Assembly: GCA_905250025.1 (NCBI GenBank)
Contig: CAJNOJ010000205.1
Location: forward strand, 17,730 to 80,291
From: Adineta ricciae
Lineage: Eukaryota
Length of the DNA stretch: 62,562 bases
Direction of reading: 5' to 3'
In this document: positions 10,854 to 33,500 of the stretch, in pieces
Layout: every line of letters starts with the position of its first letter
How positions within the stretch are numbered: the stretch's first letter is position 1
Made by a program: the position numbers and the translations under genes
The notes under the pieces: model-generated
What the model saw: only the letters and a program-made list of their open reading frames with translations
Database searches by the model: none
Told to the model about the DNA's origin: nothing

Positions 10854-13800
10854 TTGTATAAACAAATCCTGAATTTTAACATGGCATTGTCTTCTACATG
10901 GACGGACCGAATAGCTAAACTTAGTGGAAATAAAACTCTGAAATCAAGAACATGTAAAGTGTTCGTGAAACATCCAGAAAGAGATATATGTCAATGTGGT
11001 CGTCTAAAGCCGAGCCATAGTTATGAAACACTTGATATGAAAACTCTAGCTGAACCAACCGATCAAACCAGAGAATGGAATGAATTTCCAGACACAGCCG
11101 CCGTTCCTATCAACGTCTATGGTCAATTATCGTCCAATGGACCGAAATTTGTTCGTTGTGACAATCGAACGAAGCCGGTAGATTTATATAATTTAATTCT
11201 CGACGACTGTAACAATCAAAAACCAAATCTGTTAATAAGTGCCTATGGCGGTGCAAAATTTTTCACCCTAAGTGAACGTATAGAGAAAGATTTTGTTACT
11301 GGTATTATTGATTTAGCAACAAGAGCAGGTAGGGAAGAGTATCATACACAAAAGTCGAGATACGAGCTTTGAGTTTCTCTTTCAAAGATGCATGGATTCT
11401 GACAGCAGGTGTAAATAATGGCGTTGCAAATCTGATTGGTGAAGGTATTTCGCAATATCGAGTACTGAAACAACATCCGAAATCGATTATATGTATTGGT
11501 CTGACGCAATGGGGTAGTCTGACTGAACGGACACGACTAGAATTGAAACAAACGACTCCAGTAAACATTGCGAATTGGTAGTATTTTCTATTAGCTATTT
11601 TATTTACAGAATTACCCTGAACAGCTGACATATATTAGACAAGCTGAGTCAAAGCTGGAAGTTGATAGTGAAGATCTGGAACTAAATCATACACATTACA
11701 TTATATTAGACAACGGTCAGTTGCGTGGTCATCTCAGTGACACGCCGCGCCAAAAATTCGTCAGTCAAGCGACGCAAGATGGCAGCTGTAAGTATTGTAA
11801 AATATATTCTATCATCTATACATGTCGCGTGTTTAGGTTATGGGATCACGATTATCGTGGAAGGAGGTGCTAACACTTTAGAAGTCATTCAAAATGATCT
11901 TGACGCGAAACGGCCTGTTGTTTTAATCCAAGTACGTGTCTAGATGATTTCGTATTGACTGAATTAACGCGAAATATTCGTCTAGAAAAGTGGTCGAATA
12001 TCGGATGTGCTGGCGAGTTTGATACAGTTGACGTCAAGTGCTGATCGGACTAAGTCTAGGTATGATTCTTTCTACATATCTATTCGAAGGTGTATCTGCT
12101 TTGTTTAGAGAACCGATTCAGGCAGAAGTCGAAGAACATCTTGATAAATATTTTACTGCGTTGAAAGGAGATATAGATCGAACGACTCGTATCAAACAGA
12201 TTCTTGAAATTATGAAAACCACGAATCGGTACTTATTACATGTCTATCAGCTCGATGGAGAAAAAAGTATGTCGGAGACTATGTTTCAAGCTATTTTCTC
12301 AGGTACAAAAATGAGTGACTCTGTACTTTCACATACTAATCATCTATTGAATCGCTTTAGCTTATAAAGACAATCCTGACGATGCTAAACGTGAACGCCT
12401 GCTTGATCTATCGATTCGATGGAATTTTCTAGATGGTGCTAAACAATTACTCGAAGTAAATAACACACGGAGAGAAAAAAGTGGCCAAACAAAGGTAGAA
12501 AATGTATAGTTCTCTCGGTCGTATTCCAGCTTTCTGTTATGTAGGATAAACCATTGTTAGGGAAACTGTTCAAACAAGCGTTAGAACAGAATCGACCATC
12601 TTTCGTCGACTATTTTCTTCGCTGTGGTTACGACCCAAGAGATCTACCAAGTGTCATGAGTCAAACGTCCTCGGAAGAGGAATCTGCGTTCATCAATGTA
12701 GATACAGCAAACAAATGTCAAAAATTTGTTCTGAGTTTATACAATCATATAAAAAAACATGCGTACGAAGTAAGCACTGTCCGAGATACTTGAATAATGT
12801 AGTGAACGAATGGTTTGCTGGCTTTAGCATCATAATAAAGAGTCGATTAAGTTATTTTATGGTCCGAGAAACGAGTTGAACGATGTTGAGTCATTAAATC
12901 GAAGACTTAGGCGATGGTTGGGTTCCTATGTCGATGCGGTGTACGTTACTAAGCCAAAAACATTACTACCGATTCCAATGACTCGACAATTATTTATTAA
13001 ATATTTCAATAATCAAGTTGCAGCTGAGAACGGAGATGCAATTGTGCAGTTTCATGATGGAACTTCGAAAATCAGACATAGTATTGACCATATTGCGACA
13101 GTCGGCATCACTCCCGACAACGTTGTAGATAGCAAAACGGATTTGAATTATTCTCAACAAGAGATGCTCAGAGATTTGTTCCTTTGGTCTGTATTTATGG
13201 ATCTTTCATTAATGTCGAAAACAATTCTCATTCATATGCAAGAACGAATTTGTGCTTCATTAATTGCTGCGAAAGTTTTCAAAGCGTACGCCGATGAAAC
13301 ACCAATTACTGATTTGAGAGATCGATTGAATCGACAAGTGGTCGAATTCGAAAATTACTCAGCAAAGTGTGTCGATACATGCTACGAAGTTAGCGAACCA
13401 CTCGCTTGCCAGTTGTTGATGAGAGCCGTTCCAAGCTTTGGCAATGTTACATGCATGCAAGTGAGTACATTCTATTCGACAAACGATTGGACAACGGTAG
13501 GGTAAACATAGGTTGCAATATCCGGTGAAAACGCGAAATTTTTGGAAACAGCATGTTTCGATCATGTTCTCAATCAAATTTGGTATTATAAATTGGCTCT
13601 TTCAACCAAATCTCTCGTATCGAAGGTTCGATTGTTCGGCAGTATACTTACACTTGGTTTGCCTGCACCGTATCTTCTCGAATATCGATCGAAGGAAGAT
13701 TGTTATTCAAGTGTAAGTGACGGAGGATCATTAGGTAATCTGTACTTTCTACTGTCTGCTATAGGAAATATTAACGGAAGAGGAGAAAAATGCAAAGTAA

Positions 13801-15543
13801 ATTGAGAACGAATGATCATTGGATAATCTTGAAGAATCGATTTCGTTTAGATTATCTGAAGATGGCATCATTTACGATATTTATGATGATCAGCCTAGTT
13901 TCCTGCAGAAATTTACTAGTTTCCATCAAACTCCCGTTGTTAAAATGTGCTACCATGTTGTAAGTGCGAAATAGTTTCACAAAATAGCGCTATATCATAT
14001 TTCCCTCATTATTCAGATATCGTACATTCTCTTTCTGCTAATATTCAGCTACATGATGCTTTATCATTTCGATTCACTTGCTGTTACTAATGGAACACTC
14101 CATTGGACTGAATATGCAGTGATTATTGTTGTTACAACTATGTTTTTGGAAGAAATACGACAGGTAGATACATAGAGTCGAAATATATTCTAGTTTGAAG
14201 TGTTGTTTGTATAGATTGTTCATGATTTACATACAAAGATGCTTGAAAAATGGAATACGACCACTCATTTGGTTCTAACCAAGTTAGCCAATCCATTCTA
14301 TGCGCTTCCATTTCTTCTTTTCTACCTGGGAATCTTGTTACGCTATGCATTTGGTAATGCATCGAGTGTATTGTCAGCCGCGCGTATTCTCATGGCATTC
14401 GACTTGGAACTGTGGTATCTTCGTTCACTAAAATTTGTTATTGCACTCAAATTTCTTGGACCAAAACTTTTCATGCTTAGAAATATGGTAAGACAAATAT
14501 GAAATCATTATTGACTGATTTAATCGTTGTTTCAGTTACGAGACTTAGCTGCATTTGTCTACATGATATTCATTGCGATTGCTGCGTATGGTGTTGTTTC
14601 TCGTGCGTTGTTTATGTATAAACAAGTACCATTTACAGGGCGTGGAATATTCGAAAATATATTCTATCCGCCATATTGGTTTATCTATGGGAATCCAAAT
14701 GATACGACAACATTAGATAGTAAGAATATCTTCATAGATTCATCTTTCTCTGTCGTGTATTTGATTTTTAGATATCATACATGATGGAAATAGTTCATTT
14801 ATCGCCGAAGCAACTGCTACACATGTCCTGCTAGCTTTCCATATGTTATTTATTAATATTTTGTTGCTCAATCTGCTCATCGCTGTTTTCACGTGATACA
14901 GAGCTCTGTTTTTCTTTTCGATTTGATGACGAAGATTTCTTCTTTATAGCCGTACGATTGACGAAGTTCAAGAACATACGGAATTCTACTGGCGTTTTCA
15001 ACGTTACTCATTCGTACGTGAATATTTCGAACGTCCATGGTTAGCATATCCGCCATTGATAATTATTCCACATTTGTGGATTGTGGGTCGTGCATTGTGG
15101 AAGAAATGTTGTTCTTCGAAGCACTACGATGCTCGAACGGAACATCATTCTGTTACAACACCGATATTCAGTGAGAAAATCGAATTTAACCATCGAATTC
15201 GAGGGTAATCTGTATTCGAACTTTTAGAAATGATCCCATTAAATCGTAAGATATTCCACGAACGATGGGATAAATTCGAGAATGCCGCAACGTATAGCTA
15301 TGCTCGATCTGTCATCAATTTTGAGAATACGAGCAACTCGAATCAACAGAGAAAATCAGCAGAATCGTTCGTAGAAATACTGTGTGAACGCATTTATGAA
15401 TTCTTCTTCTATTGTTTTTAAGGACAACTACAGTACAAACACACGAAGATATGCAAAGACAAATAAATGAAATTACCATCGCACTCAAGCGTCTTACAGA
15501 ATCATTAGTACGATCGGACGCCAATGCTCAATCAATATCGTGA
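10854..15543 (+). CDS. TRPM (melastatin-type TRP) cation channel, multi-exon with about 45-60 bp introns
   Basis: Exon 1 (10854..about 11330) encodes the TRPM N-terminal homology region (…CQCGRLKPSHSYE…PNLLISAYGGAKFFTLSERIEKDFVTGIIDLATRA). The next exon continues DAWILTAGVNNGVANLIGEGI, matching the conserved TRPM AWIFTGGVNTGV block. Introns 11331-11383 (gtaggg…ttcaaag) and 11579-11624 (gtagta…tttacag) were verified by frame. Later exons encode CYGITIIVEGGANTLEV, the pore/S6 region (HVLLAFHMLFINILLLNLLIAVFT) and a TRP-box region (FYWRFQRYSFVREYFERPWLAYPPLIIIPH). A coiled-coil tail ends at the TGA at 15541-15543. Not all internal exon boundaries were resolved. Confidence 0.75.
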
Positions 15544-17594: not shown

Positions 17595-17791
17595 AGTTTG
17601 AATCGAATGAAATGCGCTTTATTATGGAAAAGTATATATTTACTTTACTCCTTTTCTTACTTGTTCTGTCTGTCGAAAGTAACAACGATGAATATCAGTA
17701 GCACATGTAGGAAGAACAAAAAAAAACGAAAAATCGAAAACAGTTGTGTAAATAACAATTTCTTTGACTATAGATAGACATTTGACAAAAC

Positions 17792-18891
17792 CTATTCAGG
17801 TATGATTACACATCGATAGTAAACAGATCCGTGTGATGGTATTGTTTTTGGATCGTCATAGACATAGTTTGATTCCATTGCCATAAATACATGTATCTCA
17901 TCATAGCTCGATTGGAGGAAGGCATCAGCATCACCTCCAGTTGGAACATGTTTATACGAAGAATACCTTAACAGAGCATAGAAGTTGCCCACTGACAAGC
18001 CGCTGACAGTGACAGTTCCGTTCATCTCTCGCGGTTCAAGGAAAAAATATGGTACTGGTTCATCACATGCCGAAACAGATAAATGAACTGGTAATGTTAC
18101 TCCATCCTTATCGATGATCCCCGTGATAGCAATACCATAATCGACCTATAATATCATGTAGACAGGAATAAACTGCATAATGAGAAAATTCTTACATTCA
18201 GTGGTAAACATCCGTCGTCAGCATCTTCTTTATCAGCAATACTTGCTCGTGTTGCTGCAAATTCTTTTTCGTTTAAACCCTTTTCGATTTGTTGAAGTTC
18301 GTATAAATCATAGTAGATGAGTTTATCATGATCCGGATCATGCTCATCTTCATTTTCATATTTTATGCCAACTGCAGGAACAATATGATCATAATCGTCA
18401 CAATCGTCGTCAGGAAGAAAGATGCCAAATACGACCGGATGTCCTTGTAGAATTGATCGTTTCATCCACTGGCAAAATTGACGGAATTGTGGTTGAGGAG
18501 AGTCCTTCCAATTCCATTCGTCATATGTCAGATGAAGTTGTGTCAAAGTTTGCAATGGATTTCGACGATCTCCGGACGATACTGGTTGCAAGAGATATTC
18601 ACCTTTATTAATTTTACGGATCAGACCTTGAGAAATCCAAGCACCGTACTTGAGAGCTAGTGATATATGATAATGCGATAAAAGAAAGAGTAACCTTCAT
18701 TTGTGATATTTACCGATCGATTGAATGGATACTTCGCCACAGAAACCATTTCCATGTTTCCATTGTAAACGTGGTGGAATACTGAGTAAAACAGTTGTTG
18801 TGGACATGTCTGTTTTTGTTTTTACCGTAGTTCGATGTCGATGTGCTCGAATATGCGGCATTATATACAGGTAGAGTTTTACAAATGTCAA
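17792..18891 (-). CDS. Hypothetical protein in at least 3 exons; function unknown
   Basis: Co-oriented minus-strand ORF segments 18697..18891 (MTFVKLY…WKHGNGFCGEVSIQSIGKYHK), 18154..18591 and 17792..18025. The gaps are about 100-130 bp, consistent with the short-intron style seen elsewhere. Acidic stretch DDDCDDYDHIVPAVGIKYENEDEHDPDHD. No confident family assignment. Confidence 0.4.
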
Positions 18892-19368
18892 TAATGCACC
18901 TCCTTACAAGACATCAATTGCGTAAGATATCCTAAAAATGACTTTGATGGATTCTTCCTTTCCGACATAAGTAAGAATATTACCTTGGCATGCACGTTAC
19001 GACATTATGTTTTTCCTTCTTTCTCTCTCTTCCACGCTTAACATCTATCATGGACGACAACATGTTTTTTTCTTTTCGTCTTCATGCAAACATGAAAAAC
19101 ACAAATATACTATTTTGCTTGCCTTATCAATCGTTCGTTCTCTCGTATACCACTCGGTTCTAATTGCACTACTGCTCTCAGTCAAAACTATGCAAATTTC
19201 ATTGCAAACTATAGATAACATGAACTACGCTGTTTACAAACATTGAAGATTAATTGTTCGATACTGACTGACAAGATATAGTCAATTTAATTATCGAGTA
19301 TTCTGAGAGCATGAAGACAACGTTACACAAAGCATACATGAATATCTATCTATAAGTTTATCGTGAGT

Positions 19369-20652
19369 CTATTGTGCTTCATTCCGGCTGTTTGGATTCA
19401 CTCGTCTCATTTTCCATTTTCGTATGCAATATGTCACCAACTTAACTGTCAAAGGTACAGTCAATTTTAACACTGTTGCTAAACCACCAACTAATCCAAT
19501 CAATGTTGTTACTATGTAAATAGGAGCATTTTGCGTCTCATAACTATAAACACATTCTACTGGTTGACATTGCTCATAATAAATTTCATGCATTGTATTG
19601 ATATTCCATTGTTCGATCATCAAGTTTTTCAGAAGATCGTTTACTGTTGAATTTATGCGATAGTTGCTTGATAATGAAATATTCAAAGGTGTTATGTTCG
19701 ATGGACGTTTGTCCGACATGTAGAATTGAATAGTGTCGATACAATTCTGATCATAAAGACACTCTAGTGTTGATTTGAGTAGTGCTTCAACTGTATAGCA
19801 CCCGACATTGAAACCAGGTATCAAAAGCGACGGCAAATTGGTAGAATTATCCCAAATGTAAGTCGATTCTGTACATTGAGCCGAGTGAGCGCAACTGCAA
19901 TTGCCATAGGTACGCTGCGCCGTACTAACTGAAGATCCGTCTGGTCCGGTAAAAAGGTCATGACTTGACAAAGTTCCTGATGTAAGAGAGTTGCTTTGAG
20001 TCGTTTCGCGTATCATCGAAATAGACGACAGAAAATCATTGATTGTGAAGAGTTTAAACTCAGTAATCAATGCTTGAATTTGTAATTGAAACACCTTATA
20101 AAGTGTGACAGATGATCTAATATATTGACTTGAATAAAATTGACTTAGAGCATTCGAAATCGCCTGATTGCTCAACGTGCAGAAGTCATTGAGTGTACGA
20201 AATCTGTATATGAAGCTCATTCGGAAGTCATTTGGATTGATGGATGTCGGATCAGCTTTAGGTATAGAATTAATCCATTGTTCAGATACGAAAATACTTG
20301 TACAGATTTGATGAAATGTGTAATTAACATCAAGAATCGCTTTGTAGCTAATTGAGACTTGTTTACATGGACAGGATAATGTTTGAGAATATGAAGAGTT
20401 GAGACGAGCATACTCTTCATAGGAAGGTACTGGCACGTGGACTGTCTTCGTGATTTTCACAACAGATGTGTAGAGAAGAAGAATGGCCAAAGATAGAATG
20501 AAGAGAATAAGAAATAATCGGGTGGAAATGATTTGATTGCGAAGCTTGTACTGATCCGTTGAAGGTGGAATCGACGGAAACAGATTAAAGTTTTGTAACG
20601 AGTATTTTAACTTTTCATACAACATATTGACTCGTTCACGAGTAGTTAACAC
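19369..20652 (-). CDS. Type-II/bitopic membrane protein with a Cys-rich ectodomain (427 aa), member of a tandem paralog pair
   Basis: 427-aa ORF with N-terminal [22 protein letters not shown] and C-terminal TM YIVTTLIGLVGGLATVLKLTVPLTVKLV. Conserved cysteines (SCPCKQ…, CSCAHSAQC). It is the upstream paralog of 20745..22082. Confidence 0.7.
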   Translation of the reverse strand: MLTTRERVNMLYEKLKYSLQNFNLFPSIPPSTDQYKLRNQIISTRLFLILFILSLAILLLYTSVVKITKTVHVPVPSYEEYARLNSSYSQTLSCPCKQVSISYKAILDVNYTFHQICTSIFVSEQWINSIPKADPTSINPNDFRMSFIYRFRTLNDFCTLSNQAISNALSQFYSSQYIRSSVTLYKVFQLQIQALITEFKLFTINDFLSSISMIRETTQSNSLTSGTLSSHDLFTGPDGSSVSTAQRTYGNCSCAHSAQCTESTYIWDNSTNLPSLLIPGFNVGCYTVEALLKSTLECLYDQNCIDTIQFYMSDKRPSNITPLNISLSSNYRINSTVNDLLKNLMIEQWNINTMHEIYYEQCQPVECVYSYETQNAPIYIVTTLIGLVGGLATVLKLTVPLTVKLVTYCIRKWKMRRVNPNSRNEAQ

Positions 20653-20744
20653 TGCAAACGTAGAAAAAAAAACTATATTGTATTTCTGGAATGTACGTCA
20701 GTGTTTTATGTAACACGGTACAATTGATTCTGTTACTCACCATT

Positions 20745-22082
20745 GGATAAGTTTTGTTGTCGCTTTTTTCGCCTTATTAGCTTCACAACGAATGGTACCA
20801 GGATCCTCAGACCTGTTGATAGACCGCCAATTAACCCAATCAACGTTGTAATGATGTAAAGTAAATCATTTCTTGTCTGATAACTATAAGTGCATTCTGA
20901 AAGGTGACATCGTCGATACTAATCTTCATGCTTGACGAACGAATTCCACTGTTCGATCATTAAGTTTCGGAGAATGTCATTGAAGGTAGTGTTGACTGAG
21001 TAGCTACTGGGAAGTGATGAATTCAGAGCTGTTACTGTGATTGGTGGAGAATATGTCACATACGATATAACTGTGTCGATACAATTTTGATCATAAAAGC
21101 ACTGAAGTGTTGATTGAAGTAATGATTCGATTACGTAGCATCCGATGTAGAAATTCGGTACTGTAAATAGAGGCATAGAGACTGGATAAATGTAAATAGA
21201 AGATTGTCGGACACAAGTACTTGAAGTTGAACAAATGCAACGATTATCAAATCGGGACAAAGATATTACTAAAGAATTTGTAAATCGATCGATATATATT
21301 GAGTAACCGATGAGAAAGTTCGAAAGCAAAGCATTGCCTTGAGTTGTTTCTCGAACCATAGTAAGCGATGACCAAAAGCCATTAATTATTGACAATCGAA
21401 ATTGATCGATTAACGCTTGAACCTGATATTGGAACACATCATAGAGTATGACAGAAGCGGTAACAAATTGATTCGAATAGAATCGATTCAGACTATCCGA
21501 CATTGTCTGATCAATCAAGTTACAGAAGCTTTTGATGGCTTGTAATGCAGAAGGGAGTGTGTTTCGAAAATCATACGCAAAAAGGTCAATGCTTCCAACT
21601 ATTACTGTAGGAGACAAAAATTCAAACCATTCATCCGACAGGAAAAAACTTGTACAAAATTGATGTAATGTATAATTGACATGAAGGATGTCTCTGTAAT
21701 CAATCGAGATATTTTGACATGGACAGGATAATGTTTGAGAATATGAAGAATTGAGACGAGCATACTCTTCATAGGAAGGTACTGGCACGTGGACTGTCTT
21801 CGTGATTTTCACAACGGATGTGTAGAGAAGAAGAATGGCCAAAGATAGAATGAAGAGAACAAGAAATAATCGGGTGGAAATGATTTCATTTCGAAATTGA
21901 TGTGCATCTGTAACGGATTCCATGGACGGGAACAGATTGAGATTTTGTAGATATGTTTTGAGTTTGTCCCATAATCGATGCATCTTGTGGGAAAGTTGGT
22001 AATCAGGCACGCGTATCTGTCCTTTTGAAAAAATGATGGTTATGCAGTAAAAGTTATTTCTCTTCAAGGACGGCATTAACAT
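20745..22082 (-). CDS. Tandem paralog of 19369..20652, with an in-frame TAG near 20916-20918 that makes it a possible pseudogene
   Basis: 387-aa ORF 20919..22082. The same frame continues after one TAG (…[60 protein letters not shown]), reproducing the paralog's C-terminal TM helix. About 180 bp (21720-21900) is about 97% identical to 20400-20580 of the neighbour. Confidence 0.5.
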
Positions 22083-22357
22083 ACGGCTCTCTAATTTTTA
22101 AGATTATTTCTTTTCTTCACATTTTAGTTGAAACGTTAATTACAGTCAATATCCGGGGAAAATAATTTGTCATATTTTATGTATATACTCAAAGCAATAT
22201 CAGTAGTCTTTCTCTTTCCTGTTTCCATAAAAACGAACCGTCTTCGGTATTGCAATTAAAACAAGGAAATCAAGGTTTGAACAAGTCTTTATTGTTTGTT
22301 TGTTACGGATAAAATGCATAGGAGATACATGCAGTCTTTCTTTTTATTTCACAGCGT

Positions 22358-23644
22358 TCAAGAAGAACTAATCAAATCTTCGACTGTGCACCAATATTCA
22401 TCCCATCCAATGCCTTCTTGGACCCAACCCGTACTCTCAGCTGGGAACAATGCATCCATTACCATTTGTGCAATTTTCAAATAAGGCAGTGCATCTTGTG
22501 CAGTGTCGAATTTCTCTGCATACATCAATGCTCTGATTGTCTTCAGCACATGTTCATCTGGATGTGTTAAGCATTTCTCGATCAGAGCTAGCCATGGATT
22601 TATTGCATCTGAATACAGATGCTCGTTTGATACTTGATATTCATTGCATAAATAATCCACATTTAGCTTTGGTCGGCCACGTGCAACGTAGTATAAAAGG
22701 TCTGTTGCGAACTTTGCTTTCATCAATTTCAACTGATTTTGTTTGCTTTGAAGTGAATGAACGATAATATCCAAGAAGAGACCACTCGTAGTTGCATGCA
22801 TGAGAAAAAAATCCAGACGAGGCGGTTTGTTTGGTCGTATAGCAGCTACGTTTACTAGAATACTCGTTCGTCTAGCGTCGTTCAAATCTGGCTTCCACAT
22901 TCGTGCATATTCTTCAATTAACGGACCACCACCTCTTTGTAAAAGTATCGGCGTTTTCGGTCGAGCATCGGTGTAAACGATCATATCATCAAATCGATGA
23001 TCATTTCTGATCAGTTCAATAATTTCCAAAGCTGTTTTATCACCATCTCCACTGGAATTTAAATTTATATGATCAACGACATCTTTAACATTGATTCGAT
23101 CAACCGCTGCCATAGCTAGACCTTCAATGGCCATTCCTTTCGATTGAAACTCAAGAGCATATCCAAGATGAATGAATGGATGATAAGCGCCAGCCAAAAT
23201 AAGACCAAGATATCCTTTGTTAAATGTATAATCTTCGATTAGAGCTTCCATCTTTCCTTGATACTTTTCACTGATTAATTCATTTTTAAAGAATTCCAAA
23301 TAATCATGATAATACTTATCGTCACCTAAGCATTTTTCGGGATCGAAATTCTCTTTTTGATTAAGTGCGGCTAAAGGCTGTTGAATTTTTGTATGTTGTT
23401 CAAAGATGTGCTTCAACGTTTGAGAAGAAGCACCGAATCCTAAAGCAGCTAAAAGATGATGCGCAGTATGATTGTGATAACCACCTGGAATATAGAAAAA
23501 CAGATGATGAGCTTCATGATTCTTTTCGAGGAGATCAGAACATGTTCGAACTGCTTCAGATTGGATACCAGGTAATAAACAGACATCATTTTTCATGCGA
23601 AATTCATTGCATGACAAAGCAAACATGATGCAGTAAGTTAGCAC
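22358..23644 (-). CDS. Questin-oxidase-like / DUF4243 (AflY-type Baeyer-Villiger-like oxidoreductase) family protein, intronless (428 aa)
   Basis: N-terminal family signature HHLFFYIPGGYHNHTAHHLLAALGFGAS, and central YHPFIHLGYALEF, as in fungal/bacterial questin oxidase/AflY-like proteins. Length is typical for the family. It uses the host-like AT-rich codon style. Confidence 0.8.
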   Translation of the reverse strand: MLTYCIMFALSCNEFRMKNDVCLLPGIQSEAVRTCSDLLEKNHEAHHLFFYIPGGYHNHTAHHLLAALGFGASSQTLKHIFEQHTKIQQPLAALNQKENFDPEKCLGDDKYYHDYLEFFKNELISEKYQGKMEALIEDYTFNKGYLGLILAGAYHPFIHLGYALEFQSKGMAIEGLAMAAVDRINVKDVVDHINLNSSGDGDKTALEIIELIRNDHRFDDMIVYTDARPKTPILLQRGGGPLIEEYARMWKPDLNDARRTSILVNVAAIRPNKPPRLDFFLMHATTSGLFLDIIVHSLQSKQNQLKLMKAKFATDLLYYVARGRPKLNVDYLCNEYQVSNEHLYSDAINPWLALIEKCLTHPDEHVLKTIRALMYAEKFDTAQDALPYLKIAQMVMDALFPAESTGWVQEGIGWDEYWCTVEDLISSS

Positions 23645-24001
23645 GAGTGATGTAAGAACAAAAAGTTGATTTAATGTTTATCGACATTCACGTGGCGTGT
23701 ATTTTATATATCTTTTTCTTTCTTTCCTTCAACAATATCGTTCGTCTTCTTTCGTTCTCTTTATGTCGTATGTGTACTTATATACAATCAGTTTTATTCT
23801 GTAGTTGAATTTTCAGTATTTATTCACTGTATCTGTTCGTCGACATGATCCTAAATTTTTCCATTTTGCTTTAAACCCTGGTAAATTCAAACTGGTCAGT
23901 TTCTTCGTCGGACTTTCTCCTGGCTTGTTCGTTTGTAGAGCTTGATATTTTATCCCATGGACACTCACTAAGCTACCACGCAAGTATTTCATCTTCGTAT
24001 T

Positions 24002-24553
24002 TCAAACAGGTGGGCATCTTTGAGGATCATCTTCTAGTTTCATCGATGTTTCACTGCATGAGCCTTTCCAATTGTCGAAATCTGAATTGTAACTGATCTC
24101 TCGTTGACGAAGGAAACATTCAACAGCAGCTTTATCGCATTGGCAAGTTCTATAAGCACATGTTCCTGCCGGATCGACGCATTGAATAGTTCCATTCGAC
24201 ATCTTTTGATGTTTGTAAGCTTTTAATAATGGCCTGCACTTCTCGACAGCGGCTTCCGCACTTCCAAAACAGTTATCATGTACTTGGCAGCAACGATCGG
24301 TTGCATCGACAACCAAATTACCACGTTTACCTTTGCCACACCTGAAGCGAAGGGAAAGATGGTATTTTTTATTGACACATCGAAAATTTTACCAGCATCC
24401 GTAACCATTGTATGCCAGAGGATTGCCAATAGTGTCGAGAATCAAAGTACCGAATTCAACAAAATTCCGATTTTGAATATCGGACACGGCATCTGATAAA
24501 TCATAAATGATATTCACAAAAAAGAAAAGATAAAGAAGGTTAAAGAGGGACAT
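24002..24553 (-). CDS. Secreted phospholipase A2 (group I/II-like), 2 exons with a 51-bp intron
   Basis: Exon 1 (24393..24553) is MSLFNLLYLFFFVNIIYDLSDAVSDIQNRNFVEFGTLILDTIGNPLAYNGYGCW (signal peptide plus start of the Ca-binding loop). The intron 24342..24392 is gtaaaatttt…cgcttcag. Exon 2 (24002..24341) is CGKGKRGNLVVDATDRCCQVHDNCF…CQCDKAAVECF. This gives the canonical YGC(W)CGxGGxG…DRCCxxHDxC…C.CD…C sPLA2 motifs. Confidence 0.8.
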
Positions 24554-25128
24554 AGCATCTAATCAAGTACACTTTGTTTTCGTTTGAGGAAAGTGCGCTT
24601 CTTAAATAGGAGGTATTTTTGTAAATTGAAGATTAGGTGTTTTTATTAATGTCTGGAAAAGTAACGAAGAGTCACGTACAATCAGCTCGAAAACAAATTT
24701 GTTAACGATTTTATTTCTAGACGATGAAATAAGAAAAAAAACACCTGTTTGCAATCAATACTAGTCAGTAGAATGGTTGTCTAATCAATATTTGAATTCA
24801 TCATCGAAAGAATCCAAATGTTTAATATTTGTTGCAATTACTATTGCTGGCTTATTAAAATCCCATTCAACAGTTCGGTAGTCGCATTCTATACGATTAT
24901 TGTCTCGAAAACAAGACTATGATCGATGTAATTTTTTCACTCACTCCTATTGGTCGCATGATTTGTAAGCTAACAATCTGATATTTCGTTTCAAACTGAT
25001 ATCCTCCTTCATCGTATACACTACCATACTGGTTATTTAATCAAGGCATATCGATAATTCGGTTTTGAACGAAACTTAAATGTGCTTGTCTGAATTTATC
25101 AGTAATTTCAATAAATAAATAATCATCA

Positions 25129-25527
25129 TTATGGGAAATTTTTTGTTGCAGAGTAGTAAACATACTGAAGCTCGATGAATTGCTCAATCCAAGATTTATA
25201 TACATTTTGGCTCTCGTCATACACGATCACCTCGAGTTCAGGTTTTAGTCGGTACACAAGAGCTGGATGGGAACAAAAATGGCATATATCTCCCATGATC
25301 TTGAATTGCGGTAGAAAATGTTTATTACATTGGCGTAAACCTGTTGCCTTTTCTTCGGCTGGAATGCCAGTGCAGATGATTACGTTTGCTCCAGATTCTT
25401 TGACATCGAGTTCAATTTGAGCATTCTTGCGAACAGGTTGACAAAACGTACATTTATTTGGTTTACAGGCAGCGAAATAATTGTCATAAGTGCTTTGTGT
25501 TGAGCCACTATTCGAGGAGCGGTTCAT
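25129..25527 (-). CDS. Small hypothetical protein with two Cys clusters (possible Zn-binding; 132 aa)
   Basis: 132-aa ORF. CKPNKCTFC and CHFCSHP are separated by about 55 residues. No confident family. Confidence 0.3.
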   Translation of the reverse strand: MNRSSNSGSTQSTYDNYFAACKPNKCTFCQPVRKNAQIELDVKESGANVIICTGIPAEEKATGLRQCNKHFLPQFKIMGDICHFCSHPALVYRLKPELEVIVYDESQNVYKSWIEQFIELQYVYYSATKNFP

Positions 25528-26694
25528 TGTTTAGAGTAGAAGGTTGGAAGCATGAAGCGATTGAACCATTGATAGGAGTGATAACCGCAGCAGATGTATT
25601 GGACAGAACGAAATCAGATGATAACGATCTATTCATTTGCATGTCATGGGCTAGATGATTGATGATTGAAGCGATGCAATTGAACAGTCCAGTGCTGACA
25701 TGCATAATCTGTCGATAGGATAGCAACTCCCTATGAGTCCAAGTAGAATGAGATCAGGCGGACTAATACAAAGTGATTGCTGGCATGTAGTTTCATGAAT
25801 GTGCGAGGTATACCTCGGATCAGATAATCAGTTGATGAAGCACCGATCTTCACTATCCACTCATTAAAAGCGATTGGTGTTTTGATTGATTTCCCTCGAT
25901 TTCCTCGAAAAAGTTTAGCATTCGCAAAAATCGAAACAAGTACAATCCTCTGTATGTCAAGTTCTTTAGTGGCAGGAAACGATTGTTTCTCTATCCGTGT
26001 CACGCTGTCACTTTTTTACGACAAAAAGCCTGCGAATTCAGTCTTCTACGGGTTTTTCCATTTGACCTTGGAGTATTCTTATAAAATCAGACATAATTGT
26101 GACGATTTTTGATGGAAGAGATGTATGCGCTGATGGAACTACGCTTATTTATTTCTTCCTCATCAATCGCATCGTTCTGATACAAGACACACGTTTATAT
26201 ACTCGTCCACAGAGAAGAGAACACAAGAATATATCATATCGAAGTACATCAAAATGGACTGAGATAAGGACATAATACGGATAATCCATTAGATGAGGAA
26301 AATCGTATCACGCGTACAACGCACGTCAGAGAGATTGTCATAATAATAACAATCAATGTACTGCTAGAATTTGAACAGGATTTAACGTTTTCACAGCCGC
26401 CGCAGAAAAAATCAAAGTTTTGAGTGTTCAGATGCTAGTCATGCTTGCATTTATTTACATGAAAATGAGAGATATATCGACGGTTGAAAATAAAGAACGC
26501 ATCTGTTTCAGCAACTTGTGCAATAACGTCGTCAGTATAAAACTACGAGAAGAATAATGCAAAAAATATATGTCAATCTTTCTTTTTCTTGTTCTCGCCA
26601 TGCACAACGCTTTCGGAGTGGATGAGTCATCTACATCTACACGACATATTTCTACCTGATTATTTGAAAATTTCCTCTAGATTACTTGACTAGA

Positions 26695-29600
26695 ATGTCT
26701 TCGTCGTCCGCATCCACGTTGTATGGTAAAACCATTCTATTAGAACTTGGGTATGAAAAAGGCTTTAAAGCGAAACAAGAATTGATCAATTTCTTGCGAG
26801 AGCAGCACGCACGTGTTTCGTATATTCTTACAGCTAGTGTACGTATGTTTACTTTTGTATTCCAATTTGTAAAAATCTTTTTTTTTCATCAAGACTGATT
26901 ATGTTTTCACAACAAATAATGTCGACAATTCAAAGACGCGTCGTGCTAGACAACTCGGTATTCCACTAATCGATGTCGACTATATACAACAATATCGTTC
27001 CTCATCGTCTGGACGAATATCGACTGACATCAATAAATTTCTCATCAAGTCGTCCGAAGATCAAGAGAATTTTACGAGAACTGGTACTATAAACGTCTCA
27101 GGTAATGTCGGATTCCATGTATGACGACAAACATTCCTAAAATTGTTATAGAGTCTCGACCGAATATGTGTAAAATCAATAAATTCGATGCCAATAAAAT
27201 CAAATTATGGAATTCTACTGATGAAAATCTGCCTTGCTTCGACGAATTAACGCATGGTGCTATTGGAAAATGGGCGATCTTTAAAGTATTCTCACGTTGA
27301 CCTATTCATCACTCTTCTCTTGTGATATTGTAGGAAACCACTGATAATTCCCATGTTTTCTTCGTTCTTGAACTTCAAATAATTCCCGTACAATACTACA
27401 ATCCATCGACAAGTGATTATCGATTGCGATTTCGGTATGAAAAGCAAACTATTACAGAAGGAAAACAGCAAGACAAGAAAATTTCATTTCAATATGCCTT
27501 TGGAAATGATCCTAATGAACAGCAACAATTGTTTGCATTCTATTACAATCGAATATCCACAATGCCACGTATTACACGTATTCGCGACATGTTACCTAAT
27601 CAATTAGGCTCAAAATTATTATTACGAGTGAGTTCTTTGCATGTACGGAAGAAAAGCTTTGATTGAATTCGTCTTCAGTCTTTGTTCATACATCGTCTTG
27701 ATACACAAATACTTGATGAGAATGTATGTCAATTGATTGAATCGATTTGGTTGGAATCAGTTGGTGATGTGAATAAAATCTTGAGTGTCTCGCCTGAATT
27801 CATCACTCTCAAAACGGTATACACGTATAAAAATGACAGATTTATTCTCAAATCTACCGTGTTTAGATAGTTGAAGCTGAAGCTGCACTTCTTGAGTTGA
27901 AAACTACCAATGATTCGGCGGCAGCAACACGCTTTTATTCACTTTTACCACATCAACCATCGTGCCAGATTGACCTCGTCAAAAATCGGCGAGCATTGAT
28001 TGAAAAACTAGATTTATGTCAAGTATGACAAATAGATCTCTTTATCCTTTTTATTGATCATTTTAACTACGAACAGATGCTGAGAGACATGCTAACAGTG
28101 AATGAACTGACGAACTGGAATGTGAAAGCGCCAATTGAAGCTAAATACAGAGCGTTAAAGTGCTACATTGAAGTTCTGTCGAGCTCGACACCTGAATATA
28201 AGAATATTGCGAAGTTGATTCAATCATCATCCGATAGGTTAATCAATTTTCAACATTCGTTTTGAGAATATTGAATGTACAATGTTTTTATTCGTTACAG
28301 TAGTGAACAAGTTCTTATTCATAATATATTCAGCGTAGCAAAACAGAGTGATAGTTTGAATTTTCGTTCTACACTATCTCACCAACGGCAATTATTTCAT
28401 GGATCGAAATATTCGAATTTCCTCGGAATTCTCTCTCGGTAAAACAATTCTTTTCTCATCGAGATTTATCTATGTTGTCAAATTAGTGGTCTGGTTATGC
28501 CGAAAATGGTGGTGGAAGACTTCGGTGTGGTGCGTACTGATATTGGTTGTCTTGGTTATGGAATTTATTTCTCAGATTCAATTTCTACATCTCTCAAATA
28601 TACAACAGCAAGCACCGCACGACCCGGACGTCGATTGTTATGCATATGCCAAGTGGCATTAGGTGAATCGGCGAATTACTACTCATTTGCACCAAATCTT
28701 ACAAAGCCTCCCGATGGCTTCCAGAGTACACATGGAGTCAAACGAACAGAGGATAATCAGTCGATGTTTACTGTAAGTTTTAATTTAAGATGAATATTCT
28801 GTTCATAATTGGTCCTAGGATAACGAATACGCAATCTATCAACTTGATCAACAACTTTTACACTATGTCGTTGAAGTCTCTTGGGCACCAAAGGATGCTT
28901 TAAACATCCAATTGGAACGTTTACCAATTGTTCATCATCAGCAATGTGCACTTGATTGTGTTTCAGTTGATGTTCCAACAACGATCGATGATGAAATCAT
29001 CGAAATAGCGGAGCAAGATTATGGTTTGATATGTCCGGCATCAGGCAAAATCATTCCGCTTCGATCATTTCATCTCCGTGCTCAAGTTGTTGACACAACA
29101 GTTGAAGTAATTCGATTCATTTTTCGATTTGAATGTCTAATTTTATCTTGAACATACAAGGTTGTTCTGTATCAAGTCTATTACAACACGAGTTCGACGC
29201 CCATCGAAGCTAAGTACGTTTTTCCATTGGATGAAAATTCCACGGTATGTGGTTTCGAAGCACATATTAATGACAAAGTGATTAAAGGTGTTGTCAAAGA
29301 AAAAGAACAAGCGAAACAAGAATATCGCGAAGCTATTGCCAAAGGTCATGGTGCTTATCTAATGCATCAAGAAGAAGCTCAGGTTTTCAGTGTAGCAGTT
29401 GGTAATTTACCGGCAAATACCGAAGTGATCATTAAGATAACTTACGTTGCCGAGTTAGAAATTGAAAATGGTGATATTATGTTTCGTCTGCCGGCAAAAA
29501 TGACTTCTTGGCAATCAAAGCAAGCCATAGAAGCACGAGATCAATCGATTCTTCGATCGATCGGTATGATCGACGAGAAAGTGGAATTCACTTTCAGAGC

Positions 29601-31490
29601 ATCCATTCGAATGCCATATAATATCACAAAACTATTCTCGCCAACACATCGTCTTCGTCGAAAAATAACCAATTGTATTGCCATGGTAGAACTCGTTGAT
29701 AATATTCTACTTGATCGAGATTTCATCCTTTCAATCACACTCAATAGTCCGAATTTACCTCGAATATCGATTGAAACCTTGGAAGATTCCAGCTCTCAGG
29801 CATGCATGTTAACATTTTACCCGAAATTTGAAGCACCAGCTCATTCTCGTGAAGAAATCGAGATTATATTTATTGTTGATGTGTCCAATTCAATGGATGG
29901 TACTCATGTACACCAAGCGAAACAATTGGCTCATTTATTCCTCACTAATTTATCAATTAATGATGTGAAGACGTATTTTAACATTATTACTTTTGGATCT
30001 GGTATGATCTATTACGTAATTTATTGTTTGCTAATAGAATTCGATTTAGATAATGATGAATGCTTTCCTATGTCTGTACCAACAACGAAAGAAAATCTTG
30101 ACAAAGCTAAACATTTCGTTCTGGTTTGTTATTTTTCTTGAAATAAATATCCTTCTCTTCTGAATTCATTCTAGCATTCACTGATTCATCGTGGTAATAC
30201 AGATCTATTCTCTGTTCTTCATCGTTACTCACTATTGCCATCCAAATTTTCACGTCAATTTATTCTGCTATCTGATGGACACATTCATGACCTCCAATCG
30301 ATTCTAATTCTACTCAAACACCAATCAACATTCTGTCGTGATCGTTTGTTTACCTGTTCAGTTGGTAATGTTGCAAATAAGCATTGTCTGAAGCAGCTGG
30401 CTAACGAAGCAAGTGGCGGTGGTCTAACGATCATATTCGACTCGAATTACCGATCGAAATGGAAAGCCAAAGTATTGAATCTTCTCGAACATGTTCGACA
30501 GCCATGTGTGACTAGTGTATCGATCAATTGGGATGGTCATATCGATGAACAGGAAAGGTTTCATATGCAAGCACCAAAAACAATTCGTTCTCTATTCAAC
30601 GGAATGCGAATTACTGTTTATCGATTTGTACAGAATTGTCATAAGGCAACGTTGACGGCAATGGTCGACGGACAAGAATTTGTTACCACTGTATTTAGCA
30701 ATCCGATGACAATGACAAGAGGACGTATTCTACACTGTTTAACTGCACGAGCGATCATCGATGATTATGCTAATGGACTATTGGATGCTGATGAAAGTGA
30801 AAATGAATTAATCAAAGTTCAATATAAGCGAGATCTTATCGATCTGAGCATCAAACATTCAGTTGTTAGTGCGTACACAAGTTTTGTTGCTATCGAAGAA
30901 CGTGATACCAAATCGAACGTCGAAAATCATCAGCCAGGTAAGCGAAACGAGCTAGTACACATTGATATTGAAGTTTTCACTACTGGCTGCAGGAGTTCGT
31001 CTGCTTGATATCATGCTGGAAAGTGACACGGATCTACTTCCATACATGGGATGGGATGGTGATGTATCAAATGCGTCCTTAATGAAACAGAAACTTATCG
31101 ATGCATGTACTTTACTCGATAGTACACCGATTCAAAGGAAAAAAGAGGTGATTGTTGATATTGAAAAACTTTGTGAAAGTATTTCCTATCGAGCAAGTGG
31201 AGATGCAAAGTGTGAGATCATGATGAATATCATACGGACGTGTCGTCATTCGTTAAAGGAATATGCTAAAGCGGATGAAATCGAACAGAAAATGCGGCGA
31301 GGTAGATGATTTGCAAGAAAAAGCTATGCATTCCTTCGTTTATTTCGAAAAATATTCAGATATACTGATGGAGATGGTCGGTGCAACAGCAGAAGAACGA
31401 CAGGTATTAGAACAACAGTGCCAAGCGAATAACTTGATATTTACAGATGATGAAATGTATGTAAAATACTTACAAGTATATCAAAATTAG
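26695..31490 (+). CDS. Vault-PARP (PARP4)-like gene: BRCT-like N-terminus, PARP catalytic domain, VIT domain, vWA domain; multi-exon
   Basis: The N-terminal exon MSSSSASTLYGKTILLELGYEKGFKAKQELINFLREQHARVSYILTA is BRCT-like. The catalytic signature at about 28540-28790 is GYGIYFSDSISTSLKYT…RRLLCICQVALGES…KPPDGFQSTHGV. VIT lies in ORF 29227..30141 (…VIIKITYVAELEIENGDIMFRLP…). vWA has an intact MIDAS, IIFIVDVSNSMDGT…ITFGSG. Further exons follow at 30235..31008 and 30962..31490. BRCT+PARP+VIT+vWA is the PARP4 architecture. Exon junctions and the true 3' end were not resolved. Confidence 0.6.
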
Positions 31491-32539
31491 ATTTCTTCGT
31501 TTTGTAGGGCTTTGTTATCTTCGTACGATGGTAAGAAGGCGATTATCCACTCAGACGTCTTGATATTTCTTTGTCATAGAAATCAGTGATCCGTTTGAGG
31601 CGAATTTCAAGAAATTAACACCCATTGACCAAACGAAGAAAATGAGAGAATTAACAACTACGGTATGAATACTGAATACTATTTGAGCTATGACGTTTCT
31701 TTGTAGTTGGAGGAAAAGATAGATTTGGATAACGGATGCTTCTTACCTACTATCTCAACTGGAGAAAACATCCCGCCATCCTTGGTAGTTGAGGAACAGA
31801 ATTTACCGACAGTAGAACAAGATCCATGGGAAAACATATTACAAGAGTTAGCAACGAAAGATGATTGGAGTACGACTGATTTCGGCTTTTTGGATTGCCT
31901 GGACGAAACATCCTATGTGGAAATTAGTAAGTACCTATGAAGACTTAATAGTTATTTTCTACGCGTATTCATCCGCATTCTATTGTGGATAACGACATAT
32001 ATGCTTTTGTTTGTAGCCAGTCGTCTGGATGAAGTACGATCGAGACGAATGCGTATGTTTCAAGATGCCGAAATCGAAGAGAAAGACGGAGATGTTGACG
32101 TGTCCTCATTAGTTAATCTTCCTCTTGGTGGAGAAGATCTTCCAGCAGATTTAAATTTACGCTTAGAATCGAATGTGGGATATGTACCGACACCTAATAA
32201 TGAGAAAGCTATGGAGGAAAACGACGAGATGGATAGTAGGTCTAGATATTTTTCAAACTCCTTTTTATTCTGCCTATTATAAAAACAGCTCGTGCATCAT
32301 CTGTAACGTTGCTTTCAAAACCTGAACATGGCACTGCAACGTCACGTGCAGCGACGCCAGTAGCTAGTACAATTGAATCAGACACCTTGTATCGAAGGAT
32401 ATCATTAGTGGATGCGACTGCATTGAATGCGTCTCGACATCGTAGTGGCTGCATGTCATCTTCGGCTCCATCAGAATCGAAGATTAGTAAGTTACGATGA
32501 CTCGTTTTCGTTTTGATTATTTATTTTAATTAATGCATC

Positions 32540-33500
32540 ATGAACATAGAAACACGTGTACCAGATCAACCTCTTTCTGGAAGGCATGGAGGTCCATCAC
32601 GCGTGATGAACGAACCCGCAAGTCTTCATACTAGAGCAGATGATAAAGCAGTATCCGAACGCTCGCAATTTGTGCTCATAAATCAAGATGAACAACGTCG
32701 AGAGACGCGAAGTCCAATCAAACATATGTCGACAGAGGAGCTAGTACGTAAATTAGAAAAAATATTTCCCCACAAAAAGTCTACGTATTCTCAGAAGCTA
32801 CAAAGTGAGCAAGTCGAATTGTCACGTTTGGTTTCAAACGCAAGATTGAAGAAAGAAAATCGTAAACAGGAGATGCGAGGTGAAAAGAATGTTGTCGAAG
32901 ATATCATAGACATCTCCGCTTTCTATCAAAATCCGATGCCTATGTGCGATTTACTACTTCTCGATGTATGTCCACTTGGACTGGGCATTGGAGATATTCA
33001 CGGTCAAATGCACACATTGATTCGTCGTAATACGACGATTCCAACACGAACTCAGTTTTGGCCAATATTTACCAATGCTTATGCTTATCAAGCAACAGCT
33101 ACCATTCGTATATTTGAAGGTGAACATAAGTTAACAAAATACAATGTACGTTGTAGTCCAATATCATCGACTCTTTCTGAATAATCCTATGTTGATTGTA
33201 GGAATTTTTGGGTGAGTTCGATCTTTCCGGTTTGACGAGTAATTTGACTTCTCGGACACTTCAAATATCTGTTCGTATGGATATTGATGCAAATGGTATA
33301 CTTCGCGTCGATGCTGAAGAAGAACTTTCTGGTGCCAAAGCTACATATACCGTCCACTCGAGTGAAAAAAGTTCGATATTTATTTATTTGTATTTGTAAT
33401 GACGCTCTTGATAATCGTGTAGGATTATCAAGTGATGACATTCAACGGCATCTCATATTCGTAGAAGGTCAAACGAATGCTGCAGCTAAATCTGGTTAGT
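32540..33500 (+). CDS. HSP70-family substrate-binding (SBD-beta) and lid region, with no nucleotide-binding domain upstream; may be a 3' part of the PARP4-like gene or an independent gene
   Basis: LLLDVCPLGLGIGDIHGQMHTLIRRNTTIPTRTQ…IRIFEGEHKLTKYN | EFLGEFDLSGLTSN…[32 protein letters not shown] | RLSSDDIQRHLIFVEGQTNAAAKS. This aligns block by block with the HSP70 SBD-beta and start of lid (LLLDVTPLSLGIET…LIKRNTTIPTK…[45 protein letters not shown]…GRLSKEEIERM). Two introns (33141..33196 gtacgt…ttgtag; about 33379..33429) keep the frame. The upstream about 130 aa are basic/acidic low-complexity with no actin-like ATPase motifs. Confidence 0.55.

Follow-up and report, generated by a model that had tools for sequence, protein, structure and literature searches.

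A single-exon non-haem iron dioxygenase gene of the questin-oxidase family in the bdelloid rotifer Adineta ricciae, probably acquired from a microbial eukaryote

How does an animal genome come to carry a gene whose named relatives outside its own group are fungi and amoebae, and does such a gene still encode a working enzyme? This question is raised by an open reading frame (ORF) on the minus strand of a 62,562-nucleotide stretch of Adineta ricciae DNA (assembly GCA_905250025.1, contig CAJNOJ010000205.1, positions 17,730 to 80,291 of the forward strand), which is called the window below and is numbered from its first nucleotide. An initial annotation, made from the sequence without database searches, assigned the ORF to the questin-oxidase family (DUF4243, AflY-like) and proposed that it had been acquired horizontally. 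Our analyses favour a more specific interpretation, to which we assign a probability of roughly 0.85. The ORF is a functional, host-adapted bdelloid nuclear gene derived from a single ancient horizontal gene transfer (HGT), with a fungus or an amoebozoan-like microbial eukaryote as the donor. The transfer preceded the divergence of Adineta, Rotaria and Didymodactylos, the gene was later duplicated into several paralogous lineages, and its product is likely to act in the catabolism or detoxification of hydroquinone-type compounds.

The ORF occupies positions 22358..23644 and comprises 428 uninterrupted codons when counted from a GTG. It contains both of the peptide signatures on which the initial annotation was based (HHLFF...GYHNHTAHHLLAALGFGAS and HPFIHLGYALEF). 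The GTG start stems from the bacterial start rules of the ORF listing. Because the genome is eukaryotic, we take the true start to be the ATG at position 23626 and not the GTG at 23644. The resulting 422-residue product is 100% identical to an A. ricciae protein (P0001) that carries the label ‘unnamed protein product’ and is annotated as one exon on contig CAJNOR010004472.1 (locus L001). The gene had been described as intronless, which is borne out both by the continuous ORF and by the finding that gene span equals coding sequence (CDS) length in every bdelloid copy inspected.

Membership of the questin-oxidase family was likewise confirmed. The protein matches Pfam family PF14027 (Questin_oxidase, formerly DUF4243) with an E value of 6.7e-72 and a score of 243.4 bits against a cut-off of 27, and this match, which is far beyond chance, covers the full profile (positions 1-340 of 340). 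A sequence search of the PDB retrieved BTG13 (7Y3W) over nearly its full length with an E value of 3.4e-32, followed by AflY (8YXS, 1.1e-29) and PaD (8Z4Q, 5.5e-27). An AlphaFold2 model built from an alignment of 141 sequences has a mean predicted local distance difference test score (pLDDT) of 95.7 and a predicted template-modelling score (pTM) of 0.94. When this model was compared with the PDB by using Foldseek, it matched just the same three structures (7y3w, 8z4q and 8yxs), with template-modelling (TM) scores of 0.80-0.82 and identities of 21-25%, and the next match had an E value of 0.78. As modelled, the protein adopts an all-alpha fold shared with BTG13, PaD and AflY. It is thus a compact, all-helical member of the BTG13/GedK/AflY/PaD family, and with 422 residues it is more compact than any characterised representative.

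The initial annotation had also placed the gene among ring-cleaving oxidases of the Baeyer-Villiger type, and this part must be abandoned. In their crystal structures, BTG13, PaD and AflY have an iron centre of the 4-His-1-carboxylysine type (PMC12173810, PMC11371914), and therefore PF14027 is a family of non-haem Fe(II) dioxygenases rather than flavin-type Baeyer-Villiger oxidases. The iron ligands of PaD are H63, H166, H317, H394 and K397 (PMC11371914). In BTG13, K377 is the carboxylysine and is stabilised by H58 and T299, and the substrate is contacted by H53, A51 and F292 (PMC12173810).

Equivalent residues in the rotifer protein were read from HMMER alignments to 7y3w and 8z4q, with roles taken from the same two publications and with the register at T280/T299 fixed by the row of the T299V mutant (7y3y). 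The predicted iron ligands H53, H149, H277, H359 and K362 align in this order with those of PaD, whereas H56 and T280 form the predicted second shell, and H51 and F273 are predicted substrate contacts. Of the 26 bdelloid-clade sequences, 25 retain the H51-N52-H53-T-A-H56 motif and one is gapped in these columns, and H149 is invariant among all 141 aligned family members. H359 and K362 are each present in 24 of the 26 bdelloid sequences, with the exceptions falling among three incomplete sequences. Ten residues (H51, N52, H53, H56, H149, F273, H277, T280, H359 and K362) are kept in every bdelloid copy that is complete at those positions.

The origin of the gene can be approached through the distribution of its homologues. 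A word-indexed search that covered 5.8 billion proteins found close homologues (58-73% identity) just in bdelloids and in unnamed metagenome contigs, after which identity falls to 37% or less. The bdelloid carriers are A. ricciae (three 90%-identity clusters), A. vaga (two), A. steineri, Rotaria sp. Silwood1, Rotaria sp. Silwood2, R. sordida and Didymodactylos carnosus. When 1.84 billion cluster representatives were searched exhaustively with phmmer, 909 matches were obtained. The best of these from outside the bdelloids belong to the amoebozoan Luapelamoeba hula (42% identity, 3.8e-74) and to Saitoella (Taphrinomycotina; 41%, 1.2e-67), followed at 34-36% identity by Actinomortierella, Neolecta and Fennellomyces. 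Twenty of the best 30 representatives are named, and these are 17 fungi, two Amoebozoa and one heterolobosean, with no bacteria and no animals. The 17 fungi span a chytrid, Kickxellomycotina, Mucorales, Mortierellomycota, Pezizomycetes, Taphrinomycotina and Agaricomycetes. Similarly, the named proteins among the 120 listed from a profile search are just bdelloids, fungi and Luapelamoeba. No animal or other holozoan apart from bdelloids occurs among the named matches of these three large searches, which agrees with the earlier statement that the family is essentially absent from metazoa. The accompanying label ‘fungal/bacterial-type’ holds for its fungal half, since 17 of the 20 named relatives are fungi, but its bacterial half found no representative among them, and Amoebozoa and a heterolobosean have to be added.

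A bacterial donor can be weighed against the same results. PF14027 does have bacterial members, and several short metagenome matches (P0047-P0054; about 316 residues, 37% of the query covered) may be bacterial. However, every named protein among the best 30 representatives is eukaryotic (20 of 20), as are all named non-bdelloid matches listed from the profile search, and a scan of the 422-residue protein against NCBIfam, which consists of prokaryotic annotation models, gave no match. Transfer from a bacterium is therefore extremely improbable.

Phylogenetic trees were built by neighbour-joining, a distance-based method only, from 405 or 368 trimmed columns of a 141- or 137-sequence alignment. 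In these trees, the bdelloid sequences form one clade with 100% bootstrap support, and this clade joins a group composed of Saitoella, Luapelamoeba and a metagenome protein (P0031) with 74-90% support. Among its members is a sequence from Didymodactylos, a distant bdelloid genus. The initial annotation had regarded a monophyletic clade of close animal orthologues as evidence contrary to horizontal acquisition. Such a clade does exist in the literal sense, yet it lies inside bdelloids only, and thus it implies a transfer older than the split between Adineta, Rotaria and Didymodactylos and does not refute that transfer. One subclade unites a Rotaria sequence with the syntenic A. ricciae and A. 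vaga copies, which implies that duplication preceded the Adineta/Rotaria split. The simplest reading of the sequences is one acquisition before the sampled bdelloid genera diverged, followed by duplication. Two relatives from Mucoromycota (L010 8001-9631 and L011 1389-2908) span more DNA than their CDS and hence contain introns, whereas every bdelloid copy has a single exon. This difference is compatible with an intron-poor donor, with transfer of a processed transcript, or with later loss of introns.

The same pattern might instead have arisen by vertical inheritance, if animals, fungi and Amoebozoa had received the gene from their common ancestor and all animals but bdelloids had then lost it. 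The family is indeed old in eukaryotes, because it occurs in several supergroups (in fungi from chytrids to Dikarya, in the amoebozoans Luapelamoeba and Planoprotostelium, and in the heterolobosean Acrasis), and the long stem leading to the bdelloid clade would also suit such a history. However, the three large searches produced no other named animal or holozoan, and the tree does not follow the species tree, as the bdelloids group with one ascomycete yeast-like fungus and an amoebozoan, apart from the other fungi. Vertical inheritance would also call for many independent losses among metazoa, and this in a lineage where high-confidence HGT candidates make up about 11.5% of the genes in A. ricciae and A. 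vaga (PMC11258130). We consider this explanation distinctly unlikely. Horizontal acquisition, as the initial annotation proposed, accounts for both the non-metazoan relatives and the position of the bdelloid clade beside Saitoella and Luapelamoeba.

Judged from its sequence, the window is DNA of the bdelloid A. ricciae. Metazoan-type domains are encoded across its ORFs, including EGF/LDLa, TRPM (LSDAT_euk, TRPM2), BTB/BACK, secretory phospholipase A2 (PLA2), VIT/VWA/HSP70 (PARP4-like), several rhodopsin-type G-protein-coupled receptors, F-box and DDX60 helicase. On one side, the immediate neighbour of the dioxygenase gene is the PLA2 gene, which contains introns (212 residues over 1526 bp in the L001 annotation). 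On the other side are two tandem genes without a recognised family, and then BTB and TRPM genes. GC content is flat across the window (0.33-0.40). The gene itself has a GC content of 0.381 and a third-codon-position value (GC3) of 0.293, which lies within the range of neighbouring ORFs (GC3 0.285-0.417), and of all ORFs it is the one whose synonymous codons agree best with the usage pooled from the other ORFs of the window. The metazoan surroundings and the local AT-rich composition reported for the gene are thus both found, and codon usage points the same way.

Conserved gene order gives further evidence of integration. On the chromosome-level A. vaga sequence CP075492.1 (20 Mb), the order is PARP4-like, PLA2-like, Questin_oxidase, a gene for 314 residues, and TRPM. 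The flanks follow the same order in the window at 75-78% nucleotide identity (blastn). A paralogue resides at a second locus, in the order M13 peptidase, RhoGEF, MTHFD, Questin_oxidase and DUF4470/4471, and this arrangement is common to two independent environmental contigs, 820 kb and 18.7 kb long (L008 1-21251 and L009 1-12133). Their gene content is of animal type, and they presumably represent uncultured bdelloids in metagenomes.

These observations bear directly on contamination or chimeric assembly, by which the gene would belong to a co-sequenced fungus or amoeba. Such an origin might be suspected for an intronless gene from a family that is otherwise non-metazoan. However, the gene lies between intron-containing metazoan genes in a 62.5-kb window, and the longest contig carrying P0001 measures 189,886 bp. 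At least seven bdelloid species carry orthologues and paralogues, the gene resembles its host in codon usage and GC3, and the nearest non-bdelloid protein is just 42% identical. A 12.3-kb stretch of the window (17095-29396) also recurs at 100% identity in assembly GCA_905250095.1 (contig CAJNOR010004472.1). We considered it as independent confirmation of linkage, but sequences identical over this length may derive from the same data, and thus it counts for little. The orthologous position and flanks on the A. vaga chromosome refute contamination for practical purposes, and its probability is negligible. The gene has become integrated and ameliorated, as had been suggested.

Massive HGT in animals is best known from bdelloids. 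The arrangement matches what is known of bdelloid HGT candidates in general, which are of non-metazoan origin, reside among metazoan genes, are ameliorated and are common to distant genera; the same applies to approximately 94% of the pathogen-induced ones (PMC11258130). Most of the bdelloid HGT candidates studied are shared with Rotaria or Didymodactylos (PMC11258130; also PMC4632278). In the present case, the best matches outside bdelloids are non-metazoan, the tree places the clade among non-metazoan sequences, and linkage to metazoan genes is repeated in A. vaga. The bdelloid HGT literature, as far as it was searchable, makes no mention of this family, which lies outside the classes highlighted there (non-ribosomal peptide synthetases (NRPS) and polyketide synthases (PKS), RNA ligases and glucanases).

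The gene is under purifying selection. According to the Nei-Gojobori method, the ratio of nonsynonymous to synonymous substitution rates (dN/dS) is 0.17 in comparison with the frameshift-corrected syntenic copy of A. vaga, 0.16 with Rotaria sp. Silwood2 and 0.28 with an A. vaga paralogue, although these values are approximate because dS is about 1 and thus near saturation. A decaying relic, meaning a non-functional foreign insertion with no current role, would be expected to differ from this. What speaks for a relic is the syntenic A. vaga copy, in which a 1-bp frameshift in a run of T residues (L003 10928-10945) leaves an annotated product of 321 residues. However, about 110 codons past the frameshift remain open and conserved, through the H-x-x-K motif to a normal C-terminus, as is typical of homopolymer sequencing errors. 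The shift is probably an assembly error of this kind, with a real and very recent inactivation as the alternative. All other copies, like this one, have an intact ORF, the low dN/dS values extend across Adineta and Rotaria comparisons, the ten catalytic and second-shell residues are kept throughout the clade, and several paralogous lineages have been retained in different genera. We regard the relic explanation as very improbable.

Comparison with characterised enzymes indicates what such a protein might do. BTG13, the chrysophanol-hydroquinone dioxygenase of Cercospora, and the questin oxidases GedK and MdpL belong to the same Pfam family, with the same all-helical fold (TM 0.81 for BTG13) and 4-His-1-Lys site. 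The rotifer protein resembles BTG13 in having equivalents of the second-shell residues H58 and T299, of the substrate histidine H53 and of F292, and in lacking the lid insertions of PaD. It differs in being just 25% identical and shorter (422 versus 444 residues), with shorter loops and a shorter C-terminal region. In addition, its gene is encoded by an animal and does not reside beside a PKS or anthraquinone reductase gene.

PaD, the monocyclic hydroquinone dioxygenase of Aspergillus westerdijkiae, agrees with the rotifer protein in fold (TM 0.80) and in its set of ligands. Some PaD-like proteins degrade small hydroquinones promiscuously (PMC11371914), and this resembles the role that we propose for the rotifer enzyme. 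However, the rotifer protein has gaps at lid motif 1 (K56-F60; four residues) and motif 2 (K246-A258; about ten residues), the alignment ends before motif 3 (T444-D448), the protein is 51 residues shorter, and identity is 21-22%. Without these lid motifs, the rotifer protein is not a member of the PaD branch. AflY (HypA) of the aflatoxin pathway is again alike in family and fold (TM 0.80, identity 24%), but it acts within a large polyketide cluster, which has no counterpart around the rotifer gene. Many database relatives have been named ‘Oxidoreductase AflY’ or ‘HypA-like’ automatically. The nearest relatives by both sequence (34-42% identity) and tree are uncharacterised stand-alone DUF4243 proteins of similar length from Saitoella, Luapelamoeba, Actinomortierella, Neolecta and Mucorales.

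Genomic context also separates the gene from the polyketide-tailoring questin oxidases. An enzyme of that group (GedK, MdpL, AflY, BTG13) would be expected to be encoded in a PKS cluster together with a partner anthraquinone reductase, whereas no PKS, NRPS or reductase partner adjoins the rotifer gene among the 29 ORFs of at least 150 residues in the window, or its homologues at six other bdelloid loci and two fungal loci. Membership of a biosynthetic cluster was consequently rejected. A 356-residue aldo-keto reductase is encoded in the window by a long, intronless ORF (50521-51591, minus strand), but this ORF is 27 kb away and not adjacent. The two Mucoromycota relatives also stand alone, in a housekeeping-type context outside any cluster and beside unrelated genes such as those for a BCDHK-type kinase, an ABC-F protein and Bud13.

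By homology, and with moderate to good confidence, the chemistry of the enzyme would involve an Fe(II)/carboxylysine centre, activation of O2 and cleavage of a C-C bond. In the proposed mechanism, Fe(II) would be held by H53, H149, H277 and H359 together with K362, carboxylated by CO2, and the carboxylysine would be stabilised by H56 and T280. After O2 binds to the iron, the Fe(III)-superoxo species would abstract hydrogen from a hydroquinone or anthrone-type substrate placed by H51 and F273, and an aromatic or quinol C-C bond would then be cleaved oxidatively. Most likely, the enzyme breaks down or detoxifies hydroquinone-type aromatics from the diet or the environment. We favour this role over tailoring of endogenous polyketides because the gene stands alone, as do its nearest relatives, which belong to fungi with few polyketide pathways.

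A more elaborate possibility is that bdelloids have kept and expanded carboxylysine-iron ring-cleaving dioxygenases as part of an acquired chemical arsenal, either to destroy hydroquinone or anthraquinone toxins of attacking fungi or to tailor the products of their own acquired PKS and NRPS enzymes. We judge this proposal to be unlikely at present. If it is true, however, these would be the first animal-encoded enzymes of the class with a defined ecological role.

Several points weigh against our interpretation of an ancient transfer followed by retention for a catabolic function. Most matches are unnamed, such that the absence of other animals holds for the named ones, and the genomes of monogonont, seisonid and acanthocephalan relatives were not searched directly. 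The trees are neighbour-joining only and the bdelloid stem is long. Moreover, the immediate sister of the bdelloid clade switches between the amoebozoan pair and the trio across replicates, and therefore the donor is resolved no further than ‘microbial eukaryote’. To these points must be added the near-saturation of dS and the frameshift in A. vaga described above. Identity to any characterised enzyme is 21-25%, such that the substrate is not readable from sequence. Finally, the family is mentioned neither in the text nor in 200 supplements of the infection transcriptome study of A. ricciae and A. vaga (PMC11258130).

Coordinates of the gene, of its predicted functional residues and of neighbouring features are collected in Table 1.

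Table 1. Location of the dioxygenase gene, its predicted active-site residues and surrounding features in the window.
Feature	Position	Strand	Remarks
Single-exon CDS, DUF4243/BTG13-type non-haem iron dioxygenase	22358..23626	-	422 residues plus stop; PF14027; equals P0001
Six in-frame codons from GTG, probably 5' untranslated region	23627..23644	-	Annotated protein and A. vaga orthologue start at, or equivalent to, ATG 23626
H51-N52-H53-T-A-H56 motif	23459..23476	-	Predicted: H51 = BTG13 H53 (substrate histidine); H53 = Fe ligand 1 (BTG13 H55, PaD H63); H56 = BTG13 H58 (carboxylysine hydrogen-bond partner)
H149, predicted Fe ligand 2, within AYHPFIHLGYALEF	23180..23182	-	PaD H166; aligned to PaD and BTG13
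F273...H277-A-T-T280 (DFFLMHATT)	22787..22810	-	Predicted: H277 = Fe ligand 3 (PaD H317); T280 = BTG13 T299, carboxylysine stabiliser; F273 = BTG13 F292, substrate contact
H359-V-L-K362	22541..22552	-	Predicted: H359 = Fe ligand 4 (PaD H394); K362 = lysine expected to be carboxylated (PaD K397, BTG13 K377)
AATAAA hexamer, candidate poly(A) signal	22343..22348	-	10 nt past stop; weak evidence, hexamer common in AT-rich DNA
TATATAAAA, candidate TATA box	23702..23710	-	76-84 nt upstream of ATG; read from sequence alone
Secretory phospholipase A2 gene, last exon	24002..24316	-	Upstream neighbour; PF00068 at 6.7e-15; also in A. vaga
Multi-exon TRPM channel gene, synteny anchor	10854..15471	+	Pfam LSDAT_euk, TRPM2; blastn 75-77% identity to TRPM of L003 (A. 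vaga CP075492.1)
PARP4-like VIT/VWA(/HSP70) gene, synteny anchor beyond PLA2	28981..33184	+	Pfam VIT, VWA, HSP70; blastn 78% identity to L003 4143-6609

The candidate poly(A) and TATA motifs are present, yet they are uninformative in DNA this rich in AT. Across the window (1-62562), AATAAA occurs 147 times as compared with 108 +/- 11 expected from shuffled sequences, and no shuffle reached 147. This excess fits a compact genome in which short intergenic regions with poly(A) signals are densely spaced. In A. vaga, the annotated counterpart of the PARP4-like gene (L003 1659-9012) encodes 1868 residues with PARP, VIT, VWA and an HSP70-like segment, an unusual combination that may be an annotation merge.

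The two tandem genes noted above, which lie directly downstream of the dioxygenase gene, are paralogous minus-strand ORFs at 19369-20652 (427 residues) and 20919-22082 (387 residues). They have a 277-nucleotide stretch in common that is 88.8% identical, and neither matches a Pfam or NCBIfam family. The syntenic locus of A. vaga contains no match to them, which suggests a lineage-specific insertion or duplication. Farther away, an uninterrupted minus-strand ORF of 847 residues (42763-45306) exhibits weak but specific similarity to bacterial GH141, a parallel beta-helix type of glycoside hydrolase. Its match to Bacteroides BT_1002 (5mqp) has an E value of 2.9e-08, and the Pfam GH141_M match is below the model cut-off. 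On this similarity, the ORF probably represents another horizontal acquisition within the window, in this instance of bacterial type. A further long, intronless ORF (39970-42522, plus strand) encodes an 850-residue RSN1/PHM7 (OSCA/TMEM63-like) channel that includes the PHM7_ext tail domain.

For specialists, the gene is an ordinary and unsurprising example of known gene acquisition by bdelloids, because of the high proportion of HGT candidates in the genome of its host. The general picture is unchanged, as bdelloids are already known for thousands of acquired genes. Nevertheless, the gene is a concrete and well-supported addition to the catalogue of ancient eukaryote-to-bdelloid transfers. A review of the family names fungi and plants only (PMC12173810), and we found no paper linking bdelloids, rotifers or other animals with questin oxidase, DUF4243 or PF14027. 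To judge from the literature that could be searched, the gene therefore adds animals to the known range of the recently defined 4-His-1-carboxylysine dioxygenase family. If hydroquinone-type aromatics are indeed degraded, the enzymes could serve the bdelloid diet, detoxification or defence against fungi, and they would offer candidates for compact ring-cleaving biocatalysts.

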